A DNA stretch of 64,000 bases from a virus, in IMG/VR virus record IMGVR_UViG_3300035490_000323, positions 1-64,000 of that record. One strand, given 5' to 3'. Below are positions 4,635-44,190 of the stretch, one piece after another. The translations under genes and the position numbers were made by a program. The notes under the pieces were generated by a model. It was not told where the DNA came from, ran no database searches, and saw nothing but the letters and a program-made list of their open reading frames with translations. Numbering within the stretch: the stretch's first letter is position 1; every line of letters begins with the position of its first letter.

Positions 4635-7287
4635 CCCTGTTCCCGTTCCCAAGGAGGCGGTGGTGGGGCAGGTCTACCTCCTGCACTTCCTGGGGGAGGG
4701 CCTTGCCCACGGGGCGCAGGCCCGCACCCGGCACTACCTGGGGTGGTCCGAGGACGCGGAGTCCCGCATAGCCCAGCACATGCGCGGCACCTCCGGTGCC
4801 AGGCTGATGGAGGTAGTGAAGGAGCGCGGCATAACCTTCACCGTGGCAAGGGTCTGGGACAACGTCACGAGGGAGTGGGAGAGGAAGCTGAAGAACGCGG
4901 GCGGCCTGAGCCGCTGGTGCCCCGTCTGCAAGGCAGAGGGCACCATCCCGAAGTCGCGCCAGAGGACGAGGGCCGAGGTGCCTGCACCGCCCCCTGCACC
5001 GCCTACAGGCCCGGACTACGCGGGGCCCGAGGAGAGGGCGGGGGAGGACTTCGGCAAGGCCTCCGCATCTCACAGGCTCCCCAAGGGCGTGCGGGTCACC
5101 GTCAAGAGGGAGCGTCTGTCCGGCGGGAGCGACTGGTACATAGGGCACATCTGGAAGGACTACCAGTACGCGGGCCACTGCCCCGTCTATTCCGAGCTGC
5201 CGTCCAAGGCCCGGGAGGCGGCCATCGACTGGGCATGGCAGATGTTCCCGGAGGAGCACCCTGGCGGGGAAAAGGTAGCCTATGACTACAAGCAGATGTT
5301 CCGTACCATCCTTTCCGAGCTGGGGGCCCTGGACAGGCTGGCGGCCCGCAAGGCCGACGTGGAGATAAGCGCCTGGGTAAACTGGGCGAAGCGCGTCCTC
5401 CAGAAGCGCGACAGGATAACCTGGTTCCTCCGCCTCGGGCAGCTCAAGTGGGCGGACTACCTCGCCGATGCCTACCAGTGGTACAAGAGCCCTGGCTCCA
5501 GGGCGGAGGAGGCCAGGAAGTGGAAGGAGTGGATAAAGGCCAAGGCACAGCAGGAGGAGCCCCCTGCTACCCCGGAGGGGGCAGTCTCGACCCACATGGG
5601 GGCTGTCATGGCAAGGCTGGAGCACTACCTCAGCCTCCCCATCCCCGAGATACAGGGCACCGTCTTCCTGCGCCAGCAGCCAGGGGAGATACTGGACAGG
5701 TTCCATAGGCTGGAGAAGGACTGGAGGGACAGGCAGTCCCACCTCCTGAGGCCGCACCCGAGGGACGAGGGCAACGAGGCGGACGAGGGGGACGAGATAG
5801 TCCTGGAGTTCCCTGACGGCTGGGCATGGTGGAGGCTAGGCAGGTCTTACTGCCCCGAGGAGGCCCGTGCCATGGGCCACTGCGGGAACGAGGCCGCCGG
5901 GCCCGACAGGCCGGACGACCGTATCCTGAGCCTGAGGCATAAGGTAATCGTGAACAGGGAGACCTTCTGGGAGCCCCACCTCACGTTCATCTGGGACGAT
6001 GACGGGCTGCTCGGCGAGATGAAGGGCAGGGGGAACGAGAAGCCTGCGCCGAGGTACCACCCCTATATCGTTGCCCTGCTCGAACGCAAGGACCTTGTCT
6101 TCGGGATAAAGGGCGGGGGCTACCTGCCGGGGAACAACTTCTCCCTGGAGGACCTGCCCCCGGAGCAGCAGGAGAGGGTGAAGAAGGCCAACCGCAGCCT
6201 GGTCAGCGCCTCGGAGATGTACAGCGAGTCCCGTGGCAGCATGACCGACGAGCTTCTCCAGAGGATTGCGGACAGGACCGTGCTCAGGAAGGACCAGTGG
6301 AGGCCGGAGGAGGAGGCCTTCGTGGTGGATAAGTACGCCAACCCGGAGTGGTTCATATCCACGGAGGGCAGCCCGTGGCTGGAGGCCCAGATGATGCTGG
6401 CCCGTGGGGGGTTCGGCAAGCACCCCAACCACCAGGTCGTGGAGGAGGGGATAAGGGACCTGCTCTCCGTCCTGGACGACAGGGAGAGGAGGGCGGTGCT
6501 GGAGAGGATGCCCCCGATTCCCGGGCCGCCCCTCCTCTCCCGTGCCCCCAGCCCCGATGCCCCCTGGCGCAGCGAGGACCTGCCCTCCCTGTTCATGGAG
6601 GAGAGGAACGACCATGCCCTGTGGTCGTACCTCAGGGGGGCGACACGGATACTCAGCGCCCCCGAGCAGCAGGGGGAGTACGAGAAGCTCTGGGGGATAC
6701 TGGCCGCCGCCTGGGAGGCAGGCATCACCAGGGAGATGCGCCAGGCGGCCCTGGACAGGGTAAGGGGCTTCCTGGGCAACAACAGGCGGAACAATGTGCG
6801 CACCAACGATGCCTCCAGGGTAGCCTTCCCGGAGGCCAGCGACCCGGACTTCTGGAGCAAGCCCGTCCTGGTGGAGGTAAGTATCCAGGACGCCGTGCAT
6901 CTTGCCTCCCCCTTCTCCCATGAGGAGTCAGGGTACTCCGGGGGCGAGGACACGGCCATCTACATCGACGACTACTGGGAGACCAGCCACGGGGCCGTCC
7001 TGTACGATGCCAGCGCACCCTACAAGAAGCTCACCCTCCCCTCCGACCAGAAGAGGGACCTCGACCTCAAGATGGACAGGGAGTCCGAGGGCAGGGAGGG
7101 CAGGTCGGTCAGGCAATGGCACGAGGACTTCCTCAGGGGCCGCCCCTACGAGTACCTGCGCTGGCTGCGGGAGGAGGTACCGGCCATCTTCGAGCAGGAG
7201 ATGACGCCGGAGGCATGGGACGAGGGGAAGGCCAGGGAGGCCCTGATGGTGATGCTCCCCAGCCTCCGCTCCCAGGGGAAGGGCTAG
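4624..7287 (+). CDS. Polyvalent protein: GIY-YIG nuclease + PcfJ-like module
   Basis: VYLLHF...HYLGWS...RIAQH...GARL...ERKLK...WCPVC (GIY-YIG); EARAMGHCGN...ILSLR...EPHLTF...EMKGRGNEKP (PcfJ-like). Confidence 0.7.
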   Translation: MGHSPVPVPKEAVVGQVYLLHFLGEGLAHGAQARTRHYLGWSEDAESRIAQHMRGTSGARLMEVVKERGITFTVARVWDNVTREWERKLKNAGGLSRWCPVCKAEGTIPKSRQRTRAEVPAPPPAPPTGPDYAGPEERAGEDFGKASASHRLPKGVRVTVKRERLSGGSDWYIGHIWKDYQYAGHCPVYSELPSKAREAAIDWAWQMFPEEHPGGEKVAYDYKQMFRTILSELGALDRLAARKADVEISAWVNWAKRVLQKRDRITWFLRLGQLKWADYLADAYQWYKSPGSRAEEARKWKEWIKAKAQQEEPPATPEGAVSTHMGAVMARLEHYLSLPIPEIQGTVFLRQQPGEILDRFHRLEKDWRDRQSHLLRPHPRDEGNEADEGDEIVLEFPDGWAWWRLGRSYCPEEARAMGHCGNEAAGPDRPDDRILSLRHKVIVNRETFWEPHLTFIWDDDGLLGEMKGRGNEKPAPRYHPYIVALLERKDLVFGIKGGGYLPGNNFSLEDLPPEQQERVKKANRSLVSASEMYSESRGSMTDELLQRIADRTVLRKDQWRPEEEAFVVDKYANPEWFISTEGSPWLEAQMMLARGGFGKHPNHQVVEEGIRDLLSVLDDRERRAVLERMPPIPGPPLLSRAPSPDAPWRSEDLPSLFMEERNDHALWSYLRGATRILSAPEQQGEYEKLWGILAAAWEAGITREMRQAALDRVRGFLGNNRRNNVRTNDASRVAFPEASDPDFWSKPVLVEVSIQDAVHLASPFSHEESGYSGGEDTAIYIDDYWETSHGAVLYDASAPYKKLTLPSDQKRDLDLKMDRESEGREGRSVRQWHEDFLRGRPYEYLRWLREEVPAIFEQEMTPEAWDEGKAREALMVMLPSLRSQGKG

Positions 7288-38329: not shown

Positions 38330-38571
38330 CAGACGTTGTCCCCCGAGATGTCGCACTTGGGTGCCCCGCAGGGGCACATGACCGCAACGAACGTGCCTAT
38401 CCCCGTGGGGCAGACATGGAAGAAGTACAGGTCGCCGCACGTGCCCGGCTTGAATTTACACGTGCCGTGGCAGTCCTTCCGGCTGGCATAGCCCTCAACC
38501 GGGGCATAGTGCTCCTTCTTCCAGGCCTCCAGCCTTTCCTTCTCGTCTGGCTCCAGCGTAAGGGTGGCCAT
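38329..38571 (-). CDS. Small Cys-rich hypothetical protein
   Basis: PTGIG...CPCG...CDI pattern; GTATTA motif 9 nt upstream. Confidence 0.55.
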   Translation of the reverse strand: MATLTLEPDEKERLEAWKKEHYAPVEGYASRKDCHGTCKFKPGTCGDLYFFHVCPTGIGTFVAVMCPCGAPKCDISGDNV

Positions 38572-38587
38572 GCTTAGGATAATACCA

Positions 38588-38899
38588 GCCTGCGGGCCTG
38601 TAAGCCGAATTTTGTGCCCGGCCAGGGCCAGGCGACAGCCATTCGTCTAGGGCGGCCGTTGCCGGACGCCTCAAGCTCGCTACCCGAGGGTCGTGGCGGC
38701 CCGAGCAGGGCCTCCCCTCCTATTTGCGATTGCTCCCCGTAGAGATTGCCCGTTTCACACCGGACCTAACCGGCTCGTCTCTGTTGCTCTAATCGTCACG
38801 CCCGGAGGGCATGCCGGGGCGTTACCCCGTACGGCGCTCTATGGAGTTCGGACTTTCCTCCCCCCCGTTGCCGGGGCGGCGGCTGTCCGGCCCGCAGGC
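38588..38899 (-). ncRNA. rnpB: RNase P RNA (bacterial type A, compact)
   Basis: - strand GAGGAAAGTCC (CR-I), GCAACAGAGA/GTGAAAC (CR-II/III), AGACGAATGG (CR-IV), ACAAAATTCGGCTTA (CR-V); terminal helix GCCTGCGGGCC/GGCCCGCAGGC. Confidence 0.95.
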
Positions 38900-39060
38900 C
38901 GGTACGCTATGGTTGGAAAAGCTAATATCCAGGCTTGACTACTACCGTGCCGACCGAGGGCCAGTATGCCGTGCCCGCAGGTACAGCAATGGGCCTACCG
39001 TTCGACTCGTTCACTGCCTTGAGGACATCGCCGACAGCACAACTGGCGGCAAGGACGGGC

Positions 39061-39234
39061 CTATGCTTCTCCATGGTCCTCCTGAGCTGGCAGAAGCCGC
39101 TTCTTCCACCTCCGCCAGTACCTCTTCCAGAAGCCCTTGACCTGCTCCGAGGGATACCGGCCATCGCCGTTATAGTCCCAGAGGATTCCCCTGCGCCTCC
39201 ATCCCCTGCGTACCTTGCGGGCCCTCGCGTGCAT
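39061..39234 (-). CDS. Small Arg/Trp-rich hypothetical protein (57 aa)
   Basis: MHARARKVRRGWRRRG...FWKRYWRRWKKRL; manual translation. Confidence 0.35.
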   Translation of the reverse strand: MHARARKVRRGWRRRGILWDYNGDGRYPSEQVKGFWKRYWRRWKKRLLPAQEDHGEA

Positions 39235-39326
39235 GCCGTATGTGCGTGCCCGGATGGACCGAGTGGAGCCCCTTGCGGGGCCAGTACGGGTTGCCGGAGG
39301 TTGCTTCTACGGCGCACGCACAAGAG

Positions 39327-39680
39327 TGGTGGAGGCGTCGGGAGTTGAACCCGAGTCCGAAGAGTTCCACGACCAGGAGACTACACGCTTGTCCGGTTCC
39401 TTCTCGCCTTGCTCCAGGCCCCTATGGACTCCGGCAATCACAGGGCCCGTCCGCATGCCTTGTCTCGCCACGGGAGCGGCAAGCATCCCCTGGCCAGCCT
39501 CCCAATCGACGCCTGGCCCCCGCCCGAAAGGCGGAAGCGGGGCAGGCGGCCTAACCCTAAAGGTTAAGCAAACGCATACTGCATGTTGGCAGTTGCTAAT
39601 CCCATCCCTGTTACGGTCGGCATGGGGCCACCGGCGTGCCTCCTAGCTATGGGCGCTCCCGTCGATTCCGATACGCCCCC
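39327..39680 (-). ncRNA. ssrA: tmRNA; tag (A)ANMQYAFA*
   Basis: 5' GGGGGCGTATCGGAATCGAC; 3' GGGTTCAACTCCCGACGCCTCCACCA with G3:U; resume codon GCC AAC ATG CAG TAT GCG TTT GCT TAA. Confidence 0.95.
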
Positions 39681-39864
39681 GGAGACTGACTACTGCTGCT
39701 GCAAGCTGTAGGGCCGCCTCTAAGCCGCCACATCGCGCTGAGCCATTCTTCCATGGGCCCCTCGACTTTAGGCAGCGTGGTTGAGCAGCGGCCCCACTAC
39801 TACGAGAGGGGACGGGGGCTCGGACCCCGAATGCTTCCCCCCTGCTATATAATACACTGGAAAT

Positions 39865-39957
39865 TGGTCCCGGTGCTGGGAGTCGGACCCAGTCCATTCC
39901 CTAATCTGGGGATTCACGGTTTATAAGACCGCTCGTTCGGCCGCAAACTTCACCGGG
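39865..39957 (-). tRNA. tRNA-Ile(UAU) with long variable arm
   Basis: CCCGGTG/CACCGGG-A-CCA; loop CT-TAT-AA; 23-nt variable region. Confidence 0.8.
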
Positions 39958-39963
39958 AAGGAA

Positions 39964-40040
39964 TGGCAGCGTAGACCGGGCTTGAACCGGCTATTGCCCT
40001 GGTTGAAGGCCAGGGGACTCGACTCTTCGTCTTCTACGCC
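39964..40040 (-). tRNA. tRNA-Glu(UUC)
   Basis: Cloverleaf, loop CC-TTC-AA, encoded CCA. Confidence 0.85.
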
Positions 40041-40203
40041 AAAAATTTAAGGCCGGATGGCATCCACGTTTGGGCCCATGCAGGCATGGCAAGGGCTGGC
40101 ACCGGCCTCGGTTTGCCAGCTCCCACTACGTGGCCCGGTTAAGACCGCCGTCCCGATGCGACCACCAATCAGACCTGCGGTCAAGGTATATGGTGGCCTC
40201 GCT

Positions 40204-40278
40204 TGGAGGCGCAGGGGAGAATCGAACTCCCGCTTAAAGGTTTTGCAGACCTCTCCCTTCCCACTTGGGTACTGCGCC
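40204..40278 (-). tRNA. tRNA-Cys(GCA)
   Basis: Loop CT-GCA-AA, U73, CCA. Confidence 0.95.
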
Positions 40279-40284
40279 GAATCC

Positions 40285-40359
40285 TGGAGGCCCGAGAGGG
40301 AATCGAACCCTCGCGTAGCGGTTTTGCAGACCGCCGCCTTGCCACTTGGCTACCGGGCC
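40285..40359 (-). tRNA. tRNA-Cys(GCA), second copy
   Basis: Loop CT-GCA-AA, U73, CCA. Confidence 0.95.
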
Positions 40360-40664
40360 AATACCTTCCTGGACCCGCCCTGCTCCCGCTCGAAGCCGTG
40401 CTCCCAGAGCCGGTGCGAGTCCTCCCCGAGCATCTCGGGGGTATAGTCGTTGTCGAAGAACCAGCGGACCAGGTGCGTCCTCGGGTACCGCTTGAACAGC
40501 TCCTCGAAGCACTCGAAGGTCAGGCGGTCCAGGAACTCCTCCGGCACGTAGCAGTGCTCCTTGTCCCAGGCCTTCCCAATCTCCTTCGTCCACCAGTCCC
40601 AGTTGAGCTTCCCGCGCAGGTACCGCATGAGAAGCTCGGGCTCCCGGCAGCCCTCCTCGGGCAT
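40350..40664 (-). CDS. Hypothetical protein inside the tRNA array (5' part may be frameshifted)
   Basis: 104-aa ORF with coding-like codon usage; frame stays open upstream to about 40840 without a start codon. Confidence 0.5.
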   Translation of the reverse strand: MPEEGCREPELLMRYLRGKLNWDWWTKEIGKAWDKEHCYVPEEFLDRLTFECFEELFKRYPRTHLVRWFFDNDYTPEMLGEDSHRLWEHGFEREQGGSRKVLAR

Positions 40665-40853
40665 CCTCCCGTGGGTCTCGCAGCTAAAGCAGCACTCGCC
40701 GCCGCTGAGCCCGCCCTCCCTTAGCGGGGGAGGGGTCGTGTTGGTCCGGTCCCACTGCTGGCCTGTCCATGGGGTGGAGCACCTGCTCCACCTTAGGTAG
40801 CTTCCAGCAGTTCTAGGTACCTCTTGGTCAGCCTCATACGGGCCTCACGGGCT

Positions 40854-40929
40854 TGGTAGGGTAGGCGGGAATCGAACCCGCAATCTCCTGGTTGAGGGCC
40901 AGGTGACTTAACCGTTCGTCTACTACCCC
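40854..40929 (-). tRNA. tRNA-Glu(CUC)
   Basis: Loop CC-CTC-AA, CCA. Confidence 0.9.
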
Positions 40930-40936
40930 GGAAACT

Positions 40937-41013
40937 TGGTAGCGTCGGTGGGATTTGAACCCACGGTTTGAGCCTTGAGGGGGCCCCGTCCTAGGCCGCT
41001 AGACGACGACGCC
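40937..41013 (-). tRNA. tRNA-Glu(CUC), second copy
   Basis: Loop CC-CTC-AA, CCA. Confidence 0.9.
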
Positions 41014-41194
41014 ACAATCCCTGCGGCAATGGGCAGCGGCCTCGCATCGGGAAGGCACCTTCCGGTGGACCAGTATGGCGTAGCCGCATGGCGGCATCCC
41101 GTTCCCTTCGCCTGCAAGTCCTTCGCATCCGCTGCCAGCTTGCAGCCTCCGCAGAGCTTGGTGGCCTCGGGGGTTTCCCCCTCCGGCCGCAGCT

Positions 41195-41270
41195 TGGTGG
41201 AACCGGTGGGAGTTGAACCCACAACCCCTAGACTGCCAGCCTAGTGCTCTCCCAGTTGAGCTACGGTCCC
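41195..41270 (-). tRNA. tRNA-Ala(GGC)
   Basis: G3:U70, loop CT-GGC-AG, CCA. Confidence 0.95.
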
Positions 41271-41405
41271 GAATTTCGCCCCAGGGGGACTTGAACCCCT
41301 CTCCCACGGTCGCCTGCAAGCTCGCATGGTTGCCCCCCCGCTAGCGCCTGCTCGGCACAGGGAGGAGGTTGCAGCCCCCTCCCCAGCCTCGGGGGCTGAG
41401 GAACT

Positions 41406-41480
41406 TGGTGCGTCCTACAGGAGTCGAACCTGTCGCTCCTTCTGTGTCAGAGAAGGCGTCTACCGCTGGCATAAGGACGC
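41406..41480 (-). tRNA. tRNA-Val(GAC)
   Basis: Loop CT-GAC-AC, CCA. Confidence 0.9.
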
Positions 41481-41486
41481 TGAACT

Positions 41487-41564
41487 TGGCGGGTACGACG
41501 AGATTTGAACTCGCGGTCTCCTCCGTGACAGGGAGGCGAGCACTCCGGGCTGCTCCACGTACCC
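41487..41564 (-). tRNA. tRNA-Asp(GUC)
   Basis: Loop CT-GTC-AC, G73, CCA. Confidence 0.95.
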
Positions 41565-41571
41565 GTGAACT

Positions 41572-41645
41572 TGGCGGTCCTAGCGAGACTCGAACTCGCT
41601 TTTCATCCGTGACAGGGATGCGTAATACCCATATACCATAGAACC
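41572..41645 (-). tRNA. tRNA-Asp(GUC), second copy
   Basis: Loop CT-GTC-AC, G73, CCA. Confidence 0.9.
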
Positions 41646-41808
41646 GAAAAACTAATTGGGGGCCTTCTTGCCCCCCTGCTTTGCCTTGCGGGCACCCTTC
41701 TTATGACCGGCCGGGTAGGGCTTGACCCGCCTCTGGCACATCTCACACCCTGCAACATGGCCATGCCGGTTGGCATGAGCGTTCCCCATCAGGGTCTCCG
41801 ATAAAACT

Positions 41809-41884
41809 TGGTGGAACCGATGGGAGTCGAACCCACAACCTCAGCATTGCGAATGCTGCGCTCTCCCAGTTGAGCTACGGTCCC
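41809..41884 (-). tRNA. tRNA-Ala(CGC)
   Basis: G3:U70, loop TT-CGC-AA, CCA. Confidence 0.95.
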
Positions 41885-41999
41885 GTTCGGGGACTCCGGG
41901 CGGTTACTCCATCGTCCCACAGGTCCAGTCTCTTAGGCCCCGGTCGGGGTAGGCCACCGCAGCCCCCCCTACAGGGGGCCTAGAGGGCTGAACCGTTCT

Positions 42000-42074
42000 T
42001 GGAGCGGGTAGCCGGACTCGGACCGGTCTTCTCTGGCTTGGAGGGCCAGGGCACACCCCTTATACCATACCCGC
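42000..42074 (-). tRNA. tRNA-Gly(UCC)
   Basis: Loop CC-TCC-AA, U73, CCA. Confidence 0.9.
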
Positions 42075-42191
42075 AATCTCTCCAGGATAGCCTTGCCACG
42101 GCCAGAAAGTAGCGGACTGCACGCCGGTTGCTACGCCTGCGCCCAGCCGGTAGCAACTACCCCCTGACCTTCGCAGGGCTACCCTGAAACT

Positions 42192-42265
42192 TGGAGCGGG
42201 CAGCCGGACTCGGACCGGCTTCGCTGGCTTGGGAAGCCAGGGCACAGCCCATATACCATGCCCGC
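42192..42265 (-). tRNA. tRNA-Gly(CCC)
   Basis: Loop TT-CCC-AA, U73, CCA. Confidence 0.9.
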
Positions 42266-42334
42266 AAATACCAATGGGTGCCTATTTGGAAAGTGTGACC
42301 CGCAGGTCAGCCATTAAGTCATGACACCCAATCT

Positions 42335-42413
42335 TGGTGGACCATGTGGGGATTGAACCCACCTGCTATCTGCATTGCAAGTGCAGCGACCACCCCGTGC
42401 AGTCCCATGGCCC
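42335..42413 (-). tRNA. tRNA-Ala(UGC)
   Basis: G3:U70, loop CT-TGC-AA, CCA. Confidence 0.9.
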
Positions 42414-42491
42414 ACGAGGCCATGCCCGATGCCAGGGGCTTTTGCGGCACTAAGCCATTTCGCCTTTGGGCACCAGCATGGTCCCGGAACT

Positions 42492-42568
42492 TGGAGCGGC
42501 TGGAGGGATTCGGACCCTCGACCTCTTCCTTGGCAAGGAAGCATTCTACCGGGCTGAACTACAGCCGC
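42492..42568 (-). tRNA. tRNA-Gly(GCC)
   Basis: Loop TT-GCC-AA, U73, CCA. Confidence 0.95.
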
Positions 42569-42651
42569 TCAAAAACTAATGTGGCAAGCAGGACTCCCAC
42601 CTGCCGTGGCTGTGACCCTCAAGCCTCCCTTTCCATTGCCACAAGCTAGCT

Positions 42652-42727
42652 TGGTGCCCTCGGCAGGGTTCGGACCTGCGCCCTCTCGCGTGTGAAGCGA
42701 GCGCTCTAACCGCTGAGCTACAAGGGC
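42652..42727 (-). tRNA. tRNA-Val(CAC)
   Basis: Loop TT-CAC-AC, CCA. Confidence 0.95.
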
Positions 42728-42733
42728 CAATCT

Positions 42734-42811
42734 TGGTACTCCGGGAGGGACTCGAACCCCCGAGTTGGTTGCTTGTAGGGCAACTGGCTTAGCCGCTCGC
42801 CGCACCGGAGT
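42734..42811 (-). tRNA. tRNA-Val(UAC)
   Basis: Loop CC-TAC-AA, CCA. Confidence 0.85.
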
Positions 42812-42823
42812 AAAACTCTCTGG

Positions 42824-42851
42824 AAACAAAAATGGCACCCTTTCGGGTGCC
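42824..42851 (-). terminator. Intrinsic terminator (attenuator) upstream of the tRNA operon
   Basis: GGCACCC-GAAA-GGGTGCC followed by ATTTTTGTTT on the - strand, 12 nt before the first tRNA. Confidence 0.85.
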
Positions 42852-42873
42852 TCCGGGAGCCAAAAGCTGGGTT

Positions 42874-42969
42874 TTACTGCCCAGCGCCTCCCGAAGGCGA
42901 AGTATCGCCCTCACACCCGGCGGCCACTGCCGCTATGACATCGACTTCCGTTATGTGTAGGGCCAGCAT
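42874..42969 (-). CDS. Leader peptide of the tRNA operon (MLALHITEVDVIAAVAAGCEGDTSPSGGAGQ)
   Basis: ATG after GGAGAG; 31 codons; core codons match the downstream tRNA set; overlaps alternative hairpins. Confidence 0.8.
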   Translation of the reverse strand: MLALHITEVDVIAAVAAGCEGDTSPSGGAGQ

Positions 42970-42983
42970 CTTCGCTCTCTCCA

Positions 42984-42995
42984 CCTATATAATAC
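42984..42995 (-). promoter_or_regulatory. Putative phage promoter core GTATTATATAG driving the leader and tRNA operon
   Basis: The same 11-mer lies upstream of the tmRNA unit (39845-39855); GTATTA recurs before other - strand genes. Confidence 0.55.
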
Positions 42996-43097
42996 CTCCG
43001 GTAGTCAAAGTTCTCAGGATTTTTTTGCAGCGCCTACCTCAGGAGCAGGCCAAGCACAAGGATATAGGCCAGCACCGCCGCCACGAACGCTATCCCC

Positions 43098-43421
43098 TTA
43101 GCCCTTTCCTTCCACATCGGCCCTTCCATAGACCAGCCTGAGCCTCTCATTGCTGGCAAGCAGCTTCTCTGCCCTGTCGCACTGGGCGCACCCGCAGCCC
43201 TCCAGGTACGGGGGAGGAGAGTAGTCAAAGCTGCTGAAGAACACCCTGTGGCCCTGGCCGTCGTACCTGTTCAGGTCATTCGTCGTCCTGCCGCCCTTGA
43301 GCGGAATCTCATGGAACAGCACGTCCAGGCGGTGGGGGCCGCACAGCACGATGGCCTCCCTGTCGAACCATACGTGGTGCAGGCCGTCCGTCCTCTCGCA
43401 GCCCAGCTCCTCGCAGACCAT
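43098..43421 (-). CDS. Hypothetical Cys-rich protein
   Basis: MVCEELGC...LCGPH...CGCAQC; GAGG RBS. Confidence 0.5.
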   Translation of the reverse strand: MVCEELGCERTDGLHHVWFDREAIVLCGPHRLDVLFHEIPLKGGRTTNDLNRYDGQGHRVFFSSFDYSPPPYLEGCGCAQCDRAEKLLASNERLRLVYGRADVEGKG

Positions 43422-43433
43422 CCTCGTTGCCTC

Positions 43434-43724
43434 CTATGCCGTTGGCGTATCGTGGTTCGGGGGCCTCTGCGGCTTCCCGGCGTCCTTGGTATGCTGCCTT
43501 AGCTCGTCGATGGTGAAGGTCCTGGTCATCCACAGGATGCCCTGGATGAACCCTATCCACCTGCTGGCCTTGGCCCTGTCGGGCTGCTTGCCGCCGAGGT
43601 GGAGGAGCATCTCGTCCGCCATCCAGGCAGCGTGCAGCAGGGGGGGGCCTCCCTTGAAGGACCCGCATACCCTCTCCCCCAGGGCCTTACGGTAGAACTC
43701 CAGCAGCCTGCGCTCCCTGTCCAT
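43434..43724 (-). CDS. Conserved phage hypothetical protein
   Basis: HAAWM...KASRWIGFIQG...IDELRQH. Confidence 0.65.
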   Translation of the reverse strand: MDRERRLLEFYRKALGERVCGSFKGGPPLLHAAWMADEMLLHLGGKQPDRAKASRWIGFIQGILWMTRTFTIDELRQHTKDAGKPQRPPNHDTPTA

Positions 43725-44190
43725 GCCTGGCCTCCCCGCGTACCTTCATGAGAATCCTGCCTAGGTGGTTGTGCTTCTCCCTGCCCTCGCACTTGCGGCA
43801 CGAGCATGCGCCCCAGAAGTTGTCGTGCCAGTAGTTGCCCTCCACCAGCTCCTCCTCGCCGGTCGCCAGGAGCTTCTCCCGGAGGGTGGGGTAGAGGCTG
43901 AACTTCTGCCTGACGAGGTCCTCCATGATGCCGAGGCTGGCCTGCTCCCAGTCCTTGCGGAGGTGCCCCTGCGCCGTGAGCTTCCTGGCCAGCTTCTTGG
44001 CCTCGCCAGGGGTAGTCCCTATCCCGTCCGCCGACCTGAACAGTATCCTGAGGCCTGGGGCCAGGAACTTTGCCGCCTGGTAGGCATGCTCCACGGAGTC
44101 GTACGCCTCCCCGTCCAGCCGGACAGGGAAGGGCCAGTAGAAGTTCGAGCAGAAGTCCAGCCTCCCCCGGAACGTGGCCTCACGACTCAT
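43687..44190 (-). CDS. NADAR (YbiA-family) hydrolase
   Basis: SNFY...SVEHAYQAAKF...AKKL...W...M...KF...LLATG...LVEGN.WHDNFWG...NHLGRILM.VR. Confidence 0.9.
   Translation of the reverse strand: MSREATFRGRLDFCSNFYWPFPVRLDGEAYDSVEHAYQAAKFLAPGLRILFRSADGIGTTPGEAKKLARKLTAQGHLRKDWEQASLGIMEDLVRQKFSLYPTLREKLLATGEEELVEGNYWHDNFWGACSCRKCEGREKHNHLGRILMKVRGEARHGQGAQAAGVLP

Follow-up and report, generated by a model that had tools for sequence, protein, structure and literature searches.

The 64-kb stretch of DNA of a giant soil phage analysed here (the window; positions 1-64,000 of the 77,998-base-pair (bp) IMG/VR record IMGVR_UViG_3300035490_000323) carries on its minus strand a short leader element at the head of an operon of phage tRNA genes. 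Judged from its sequence, this element is likely to be a ribosome-mediated (leader-peptide) transcription attenuator that gates the tRNA operon, and the phage probably makes the tRNAs of the array only when ribosomes decode the matched codons slowly. This would be a known mechanism, leader-peptide attenuation, acting on a new target, the tRNA genes of a phage. The case is carried by the anatomy of the element, by the match between its codons and the anticodons encoded downstream, and by comparison with relatives, one of which displays the same design at all four of its tRNA arrays. CheckV estimates the record, which has a G+C content of ~63%, to be 25% complete, indicating a phage genome of roughly 300 kb.

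Anatomy of the leader element

A preceding sequence-only reading of this DNA had proposed an attenuator architecture at the head of the tRNA operon. This architecture is upheld by our analysis and strongly reinforced by the relatives described below. The claimed promoter motif, ribosome-binding site, 31-codon open reading frame (ORF) and run of codons 8-22 all lie on the minus strand where they had been placed, and the claimed 1:2, 2:3 and 3:4 helices as well as the inner hairpin with the stop codon in its loop are present base for base. The features of the element and the array are:

42985-43017, minus: promoter, with a -35-like CTGAGA (43017-43012), a 17-nucleotide (nt) spacer and the -10 element TATTAT (42994-42989)
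42995-42985, minus: conserved motif GTATTATATAG, which contains the -10 element (from sequence)
42975-42982, minus: Shine-Dalgarno-like GGAGAGAG, ending 5 nt 5' of the ATG
42874-42969, minus: leader ORF MLALHITEVDVIAAVAAGCEGDTSPSGGAGQ*, 31 codons plus stop, with the ATG at 42969 and the TAA at 42876-42874
42904-42948, minus: run of 15 array-matched codons (codons 8-22), including ATA and TGT, from codon/anticodon comparison
42905-42911, minus: segment 1, AGGGCGA, the 5' arm of the 1:2 hairpin (from sequence and alignment)
42888-42900, minus: segment 2, UCGCCUUCGGGAG, with segment 1 or segment 3 as alternative partners
42866-42885, minus: inner hairpin GCUGGG/CCCAGC, whose loop holds the stop codon UAA (42876-42874)
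42849-42859, minus: segment 3, CUCCCGGAGGC, forming the putative antiterminator with segment 2; its final GGC also provides the foot of the terminator stem
42824-42851, minus: intrinsic terminator GGCACCC-GAAA-GGGUGCC followed by AUUUUUGUUU, called strong by terminator prediction
39865-42811, minus: tRNA array, the proposed regulated unit, with 17 tRNA genes (ARAGORN and Rfam)

In a promoter scan the promoter-like site agreed with the consensus at 9 of 12 positions, and the 5' untranslated region (UTR) between promoter and ORF is only ~15 nt long. The 1:2 helix (AGGGCGA/UCGCCUU) has 7 bp and the 2:3 helix (GCCUUCGGGAG/CUCCCGGAGGC) 11 bp, each including one G.U pair. The terminator, with a 7-bp GC-rich stem, a GAAA loop and a U tract, is located between the leader ORF and tRNA-Val, the first tRNA, from which its stem is separated by 22 nt. 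Exactly two copies of GTATTATATAG occur in the window, one before the leader and one before the gene for transfer-messenger RNA (tmRNA). No GTATTAT promoter motif was found in the spacers of the tRNA array from the terminator to the copy preceding the tmRNA, and the possibility, raised earlier, that the tRNAs have a promoter downstream of the terminator thus finds no support in such a motif. Downstream of the leader follow the 17 tRNA genes, one ORF of 104 amino acids and then the tmRNA under its own promoter.

From this anatomy we infer that the leader is translated, that the RNA switches between alternative folds and that the switch answers slow decoding, be it caused by too little, uncharged or cleaved tRNA. 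Transcription would start at the TATTAT promoter, and a ribosome would then translate the 31-codon leader. During smooth decoding the ribosome would reach the stop codon, which lies in the inner-hairpin loop, and cover segment 2, so that segment 3 could not pair with segment 2, the terminator would form, and transcription would stop 22 nt before the first tRNA. During slow decoding the ribosome would linger on segment 1 and leave segment 2 free to pair with segment 3; the 2:3 helix would sequester the basal GGC of the terminator stem, and RNA polymerase would continue into the 17 tRNA genes. The predicted outcome is a negative feedback by which tRNA synthesis would be matched to decoding demand.

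Codon content of the leader

ARAGORN detected 16 tRNA genes in the array, and one more was detected by Rfam only, giving 17. The isoacceptors are those for Val (UAC, CAC, GAC), Gly (GCC, CCC, UCC), Ala (UGC, CGC, GGC), Asp (GUC, twice), Glu (CUC, twice, and UUC) and Cys (GCA, twice), together with a long-arm tRNA with the anticodon UAU. The gene missed by ARAGORN encodes a Glu tRNA with the anticodon UUC and a C at position 33 (39967-40040, minus strand; 33.9 bits in Rfam), and the claim that 15 consecutive leader codons are all read by the array holds if this tRNA is counted and fails otherwise. By the rule used in the sequence-only reading, we obtained the same coverage of 13 of the 14 distinct anticodons, with GUA as the absent codon; the leader covers all 14 if U34 is allowed to read G, and 11 of 14 by strict Watson-Crick pairing.

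Altogether, 21 of 30 leader codons are matched by the array, against a background of 42.5% of the codons in the long ORFs of the window. When 300,000 random 30-codon windows were drawn from genes, a matched run of at least 15 codons was obtained in 240 (P about 8e-4 per window) and full anticodon coverage in 416. The window has 286 ORFs of 15-60 codons that start with ATG, and of these the leader had the longest matched run (15 codons; the next had 7). The codon matching of the window leader exceeds chance against both random gene windows and other short ORFs, and the proposed correspondence between codons and anticodons is borne out by these controls.

Four leaders for four arrays in a related phage

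The comparison across the four tRNA arrays of a related phage genome (G001; 316,945 bp, 99% complete) provides, at the level of sequence, the decisive evidence for the codon-matched leader design. The 62 tRNAs of this genome are grouped by amino acid into four arrays. In front of every array lie the same type of promoter motif, a short ORF, a hairpin whose loop holds the stop codon, and an intrinsic terminator, the 5' half of which can pair with an upstream segment of the ORF; in all four leader families, the hairpin that bears the stop codon is located between segments 2 and 3. The motif GTATTAT[AG]T occurs nine times in G001, and six of these copies head the four leaders, the tmRNA and one non-coding RNA (flanks read by eye). 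The arrays and their leaders are:

G001 array A: tRNAs for Tyr, Leu and Ser; leader MKNLSSNSLSSLSYSSSLLSGLVLPDGWDG, with all six Leu codons and five Ser codons
G001 array B: tRNAs for His, Arg, Asn, Lys, Phe, Met, Pro, Gln-CUG and Trp; leader MRNRKPNPMQWQPKRHFSRPSFGGLPFAP
G001 array C: homologue of the array in the window; leader MKTAITNPVDLIEAVAAVCEGGDTSPSGGLG
G001 array D: tRNAs for Ile-GAU, Thr and Gln-UUG; leader MLTITMPHTQTQTTISSGGGACLA

Codons read by the leader's own array account for 18/29, 22/28, 17/30 and 10/23 of the codons in the four leaders (0.62, 0.79, 0.57 and 0.43), while the fractions obtained for a leader against the other arrays range from 0.00 to 0.26. Each distinct anticodon is sampled by the array's own leader (9/9, 16/16, 12/12 and 5/5). 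None of 200,000 random gene windows of G001 reached the matched-codon count of leader A or B, and none reached the run length of leader A, B or D. In a ranking of the 2,236 short ORFs with an ATG start in G001 by their match to each array, leaders A and D came first and leader B second for their own arrays.

The correspondence extends to isoacceptors. Leader B uses the Gln codon CAG twice and its array contains Gln-CUG, whereas leader D uses CAA twice and its array contains Gln-UUG. Similarly, the Ile codon ATA occurs in leader C, whose array has the tRNA with anticodon UAU in G001 as well, while ATC and ATT are found in leader D, whose array has Ile-GAU. Across the leaders, 50 distinct own-array codons are used, compared to ~42 expected from synonymous resampling (P = 0.00025 combined). 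The pattern is also retained by variants of leaders A, B and D from other contigs, and the amino-acid swaps observed in leader D (Q to T and T to Q) stay within the set of its own array. In a closer, high-GC relative (G007), the promoter flank is identical to that of the window, and a D-type leader matches its Ile/Thr/Gln array.

Further observations were made on the cassettes. The stop-codon loops are A-rich in all four families (UAAAGAC, UAAAAAGAAAGAC, UAACAAAGAC and UAGAAAA/UAAAA; located at about 1665 in L092, about 1645 in L093, about 1297 in L094 and at 42876 in the window), suggesting that the cassettes descend from one module. As promoter, A-rich stop-codon loop and terminator are all shared, this ancestral module may have been duplicated and recoded for each array.

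The 5' UTRs of leaders A, B and D in G001 are 120-190 nt long and structured, with elements consisting of a hairpin plus a U run (L093 1365-1550, L094 1033-1220 and L092 1455-1575), which could constitute an extra regulatory layer. L113 carries inserted genes that separate leader A from the promoter/5' UTR, with about 1.4 kb from promoter to leader. In G004 and G006, ~440 nt are inserted after the terminator of leader B (L154 1840-2230, G004), and a remnant of the 3' half of the old terminator precedes tRNA-His. D-type operons contain an ORF of ~115 amino acids with a Cys-rich N-terminus between the terminator and the first tRNA.

Conservation among relatives of the window leader

Syntenic relatives of the window were reached via a neighbouring NADAR-like gene, followed by DNA-pattern scans of viral and metagenome contigs. 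The comparison of leader C comprises seven distinct sequence variants from IMG/VR and from peat and wetland metagenomes. Matches L090 and L168/L170 were discarded as chance matches after reading the flanking sequence, and most 16-mer matches were likewise judged to be due to chance, as no tRNAs were nearby or the promoter motif was missing.

All seven variants have the same promoter motif upstream, and the array downstream begins with Val-UAC, Val-CAC, Gly-GCC and Ala-UGC. The ORF, the helices and the terminator are kept throughout; the ATG is conserved, and a purine-rich GAGAG/GGGAG is located 5-7 nt 5' of it in all variants. Indels in the alignment, read by eye, are multiples of three. The closest informative pair, L085 and L088, differs by eight synonymous and two non-synonymous codon differences. 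Replacements at codon 9 (GTC, GCG or GTG) retain the composition of the leader. At the C-terminus of the peptide, the conserved motif CEG(G)DTSPSGG coincides with the RNA helices, while elsewhere indels and swaps have left only the composition of the peptide unchanged.

At the level of RNA, the terminator stem is completely paired in 7/7 variants, with changes on both sides at four of its seven pairs, and the inner hairpin displays compensatory changes (CUGGG/CCCAG, UUGGG/CCCAA and UUGGA/UCCAA) with the stop codon always inside. The core of the 1:2 helix, GGCGA/UCGCC, is invariant, while the fourth base of its loop, the third position of a Thr codon (ACN), varies freely between U, C, G and A. 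No variation is seen at any of the synonymous third positions of UCG CCU UCG GG in segment 2, which points to a constraint at the level of RNA. The same applies to the core of the 2:3 helix, GCCUUCGGG/CCCGRAGGC, which is invariant including its synonymous third positions. The 9-bp core of segment 3, which is non-coding, is kept in all seven variants (with U.G changed to U-A in three) while its flanks diverge. This substitution pattern indicates, as read from the alignment, selection on RNA pairing laid over a reading frame. Both the conservation of the ORF and the stem covariation that were expected of an attenuator in the sequence-only reading are thus found in the relatives.

Predicted folding and switching

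A 28-nt ribosome mask was moved codon by codon along the leaders under equilibrium folding only. The fold of the 176-nt RNA of the window has a free energy of -84.2 kcal/mol (z = -6.07 compared to shuffled sequences). In leaders A and B of G001, antiterminator and terminator overlap completely, and both behave as clean position-dependent switches in the expected direction. The terminator of leader B has a predicted probability of 0.98 in the free RNA, of 0.01-0.11 for stalls at codons 3-14 (0.68 at codon 11), of 0.80-0.99 at codons 15-18, and of 0.99 from codon 19 to the stop codon. Leader A is predicted to adopt the antiterminator state unless the ribosome covers codons 18-29, i.e. segment 2.

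For the window leader, the preference for the terminator amounts to 4.3 kcal/mol in the free RNA; masking segment 1 reduces it to 0.2 kcal/mol, which makes the two states isoenergetic. With a ribosome-like mask on segment 1, the minimum-free-energy (MFE) fold consists of the full 11-bp 2:3 helix plus a 4-bp remnant of the terminator. With the ribosome at the stop codon, 2:3 is lost and the terminator probability is 0.97-1.0. The fold with and without segment 1 masked therefore displays the claimed shift towards 2:3, and the terminator is restored by a ribosome at the stop codon, but the switch is partial. Sensitive stalls are limited to those with the A site on codons 18-21 (GGG, UGU, GAG and GGC), with a probability of the terminator base of 0.24-0.53 at codons 18-20 and of 0.24-0.77 at codons 18-21, compared to 0.99 at the stop codon. 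The notion that a stall anywhere on the matched run frees 2:3 thus holds for about three to four codons and not for all 15. The same short sensitive window (UGU, GAG, GGA) was obtained for four other leader-C variants. The overlaps between 1:2 and 2:3 and between 2:3 and the terminator are conserved, and each amounts to only 3-5 nt. In contrast to leader D of G001 (see below), that of G007 displays a partial equilibrium switch.

The upstream part of the matched run could act through kinetic folding, a polymerase pause at 1:2 or a his-like cascade, all of which are candidates for the role of codons 8-17; a cascade is possible because GNC codons are mutually complementary. A conserved second antiterminator serving the upstream codons, GCCGCCGGG with segment 3, was rejected by eye, as the complementary stretch is absent from the alignment rows of L083 and L088.

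Weighing of the attenuator against other explanations

Several results weigh against an attenuator in the window. Its 2:3 helix and terminator overlap by only 3 nt and largely coexist in the MFE fold, and the equilibrium switch is only partial. Stalls on the matched codons 8-17 are predicted to leave 1:2 intact and to favour termination, by which most of the 15-codon run is unexplained by the simple model. Leader D of G001 exhibited no equilibrium switch under ribosome-mask folding. The 2:3 helix, being invariant across the seven variants, offers no proof by covariation. Leader C is also the weakest of the four in G001, where 5,243 of 200,000 random windows match as many codons. Moreover, composition could account for some of the folding strength, as GNC codons are mutually complementary (GGC/GCC, GAC/GUC). 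Finally, the public sequencing runs containing the sequence are 20 DNA runs (19 peat, wetland and soil studies) and no RNA run.

The explanation that competes best retains the attenuator and assigns it another signal: the leader would respond to aminoacylation, amino-acid supply or general translation stress, or would permit a constant low read-through, and it would neither report tRNA loss to host anticodon nucleases nor mount a specific replacement-tRNA response. We consider this unlikely, though it deserves serious attention. A stalled ribosome cannot distinguish a missing from an uncharged tRNA, as is known from the trp and his attenuators, and the sequence itself does not identify the cause of slow decoding. 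In addition, a tRNA array of Anabaena is induced by general translational stress (PMC8421152). However, extra tRNA does not cure amino-acid starvation, and the one-to-one match between leader and array, which even separates Gln CAG from CAA and Ile ATA from ATY, better fits a sensor of tRNA supply. The tmRNA, the RNase P RNA and the five C33 tRNAs of the phage further hint at an independent or protected tRNA pool. Starvation or a host anticodon nuclease is a plausible trigger of the attenuator, to which uncharged tRNA would be equivalent from the perspective of the ribosome.

We regard as improbable that the element is a fixed leaky terminator or insulator, or a stable 5' leader cut by RNase P, with no translation-dependent switch, and that the codon matching serves some other end, such as a co-expressed mRNA for testing decoding or a titration substrate. 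Such an element would account for the 3-nt overlap and the partial equilibrium shift in leader C and for the lack of a switch in leader D of G001. A constitutive terminator would, however, need none of the features described above: a segment 3 that is invariant though non-coding, segments 1 and 2 that are invariant at synonymous sites, a stop codon placed in the hairpin loop in all four families, and leaders A and B that switch cleanly.

A last alternative is that the element is a gene in its own right, encoding a functional micropeptide or structured small RNA, and merely lies upstream of the tRNAs. This would agree with the conserved CEG(G)DTSPSGG motif, the very stable RNA and the element's own promoter and terminator, but is very improbable, since the conserved part of the peptide coincides with the helices and the remainder varies with its composition kept, four unrelated peptides track the anticodons of four arrays, which this explanation does not predict, Rfam contains no matching family, and the first tRNA has no promoter of its own.

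Relation to known regulatory systems

Leader-peptide attenuators that sense more than one amino acid are known from amino-acid operons of enterobacteria, namely thrL (Thr and Ile) and ilvL of ilvGMEDA (Ile, Leu and Val); further leader-peptide attenuators are trpL, hisL, leuL and pheL. The phage element resembles the thrL/ilvL type in that a short leader ORF would report decoding speed, in the predicted alternative 1:2, 2:3 and 3:4 helices with an intrinsic terminator, in the expected termination with a ribosome at the stop codon, and in the sampling of more than one amino acid. It differs in that it would regulate tRNA genes instead of biosynthetic enzymes, that a phage leader samples up to 16 anticodons of nine amino acids, that synonymous codons are diversified to cover isoacceptors, and that the stop codon is located in the loop of a hairpin enclosed by 2:3. 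It is also phage-encoded and belongs to a family of parallel cassettes, one per array. Identity with an attenuator of an amino-acid biosynthetic operon (trpL, hisL, thrL or ilvL) was rejected, as the downstream genes are tRNAs. The pheM leader attenuator controls pheST, the operon for Phe-tRNA synthetase, and thus, similar to what is proposed here, a component of translation that serves the sensed codons; in contrast to the phage element, pheM senses a single amino acid and regulates a protein-coding synthetase gene and not tRNAs.

In T-box riboswitches, too, antitermination ahead of translation-related genes depends on the state of a specific tRNA. However, a T-box binds uncharged tRNA via Stem I and the T-box sequence and requires no ORF, whereas in the phage element the translating ribosome would be the sensor. 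A T-box or another riboswitch or small RNA family of Rfam was rejected for the window, as no match other than tRNAs, tmRNA and RNase P RNA was obtained at E <= 1 over positions 38500-44000. In G001, the leaders and 5' UTRs gave no T-box, riboswitch or small RNA match at E <= 0.1.

Among published systems, the regulated accessory tRNA array that comes closest is the trn operon of Anabaena sp. PCC 7120, a long array that is induced under translational stress (PMC8421152) and repressed by TrcR (PMC10272220). Control is exerted at the promoter by direct repeats and a repressor, and the words attenuat-, leader and terminator do not occur in the paper (PMC8421152). As proposed for the phage, an accessory tRNA array is held low and induced when translation is impaired; unlike the phage array, that of Anabaena resides on a bacterial megaplasmid and is controlled at the level of the promoter. 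A full-text literature search returned no report of leader-peptide attenuation acting on tRNA genes.

In searches for further copies, blastn against a collection of cultured phages yielded tRNA-sized matches only and no cultured relative, and the adjacent 96-amino-acid protein had no relatives among viral contigs. The leader-C pattern gave zero matches in prokaryote genomes, that is, no host or prophage copy.

Other features of the stable-RNA island

The leader and its array are part of an island of stable RNAs, in which the following features were located in addition to those listed above:

43020-38585, minus: stable-RNA island, comprising the leader element, 17 tRNAs, a second GTATTATATAG, tmRNA and RNase P RNA
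42734-42811, 42000-42074, 40937-41013, 40854-40929 and 39967-40040, minus: C33 tRNAs, with anticodon loops CC-NNN-AA
40350-40664, minus: unannotated ORF of 104 amino acids inside the tRNA array, between Glu-CUC and Cys
39865-39957, minus: 93-nt tRNA with the anticodon UAU (reading AUA) and a long variable arm, the last tRNA of the array
39845-39855, minus: second exact GTATTATATAG promoter motif, preceding the tmRNA
39327-39680, minus: tmRNA with the tag ANMQYAFA, near the tRNA array
38585-38898, minus: bacterial class A RNase P RNA (187.7 bits), near the tRNA array

C33 replaces the near-universal U33 in five tRNAs of the window: Val-UAC, Gly-UCC, both Glu-CUC and Glu-UUC. The relative G001 also has a Glu-UUC tRNA with C33 (L095, about 5450-5523, minus strand). 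The tRNA with the UAU anticodon scored 37.5 bits against the tRNA-Sec model, below the threshold of that model, and is kept at the end of array C in relatives (L095 about 5350-5445; L160 1269-1362). Several spacers within the array contain hairpins followed by AUUAGUUUUU-like runs (42583-42605, 41658-41675 and about 40041-40075, minus strand), which could be internal weak terminators or processing signals. Between the second GTATTATATAG and the tmRNA, an apparently structured, GC-rich RNA of ~165 nt extends to 39681 on the minus strand.

In G001, a GTATTATATAG promoter just upstream of the promoter of leader A is followed by a ~320-nt RNA with four CCGGGUCAC-like repeats, its own terminator and no match in Rfam (L092 1059-1400; G001 80058-80400). 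Two sub-threshold matches to YrlA (Y RNA-like; 41.9 and 28.6 bits, gathering score 69) are located inside tRNA array B (L093 4858-4956 and 3809-3931).

Implications for huge phages

Beyond the single element, we lean, with some reserve, towards the view that the huge phages of this lineage keep their tRNAs in balance by a modular homeostat, in which each array is autoregulated by its own leader and this leader samples, for each isoacceptor, the decoding capacity for just those codons that the array serves. By this arrangement the phage would measure and top up a private tRNA pool in real time. The homeostat may answer a shut-off of host tRNAs or anticodon nucleases, and could also explain the C33 loops.

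The tRNA genes are the textbook case of promoter-level control, be it growth-rate or stringent control. If the proposed attenuation is true, a virus would encode a feedback by which the supply of decoding capacity is adjusted directly to demand, separately for each codon class. Such attenuation would help to explain why huge phages group their tRNA genes by amino acid, how wasteful tRNA synthesis is avoided, and by what means these phages might answer host defences that target tRNAs. As the elements are self-contained and only ~150 nt long, they would also provide compact natural parts that report the availability of chosen tRNAs.

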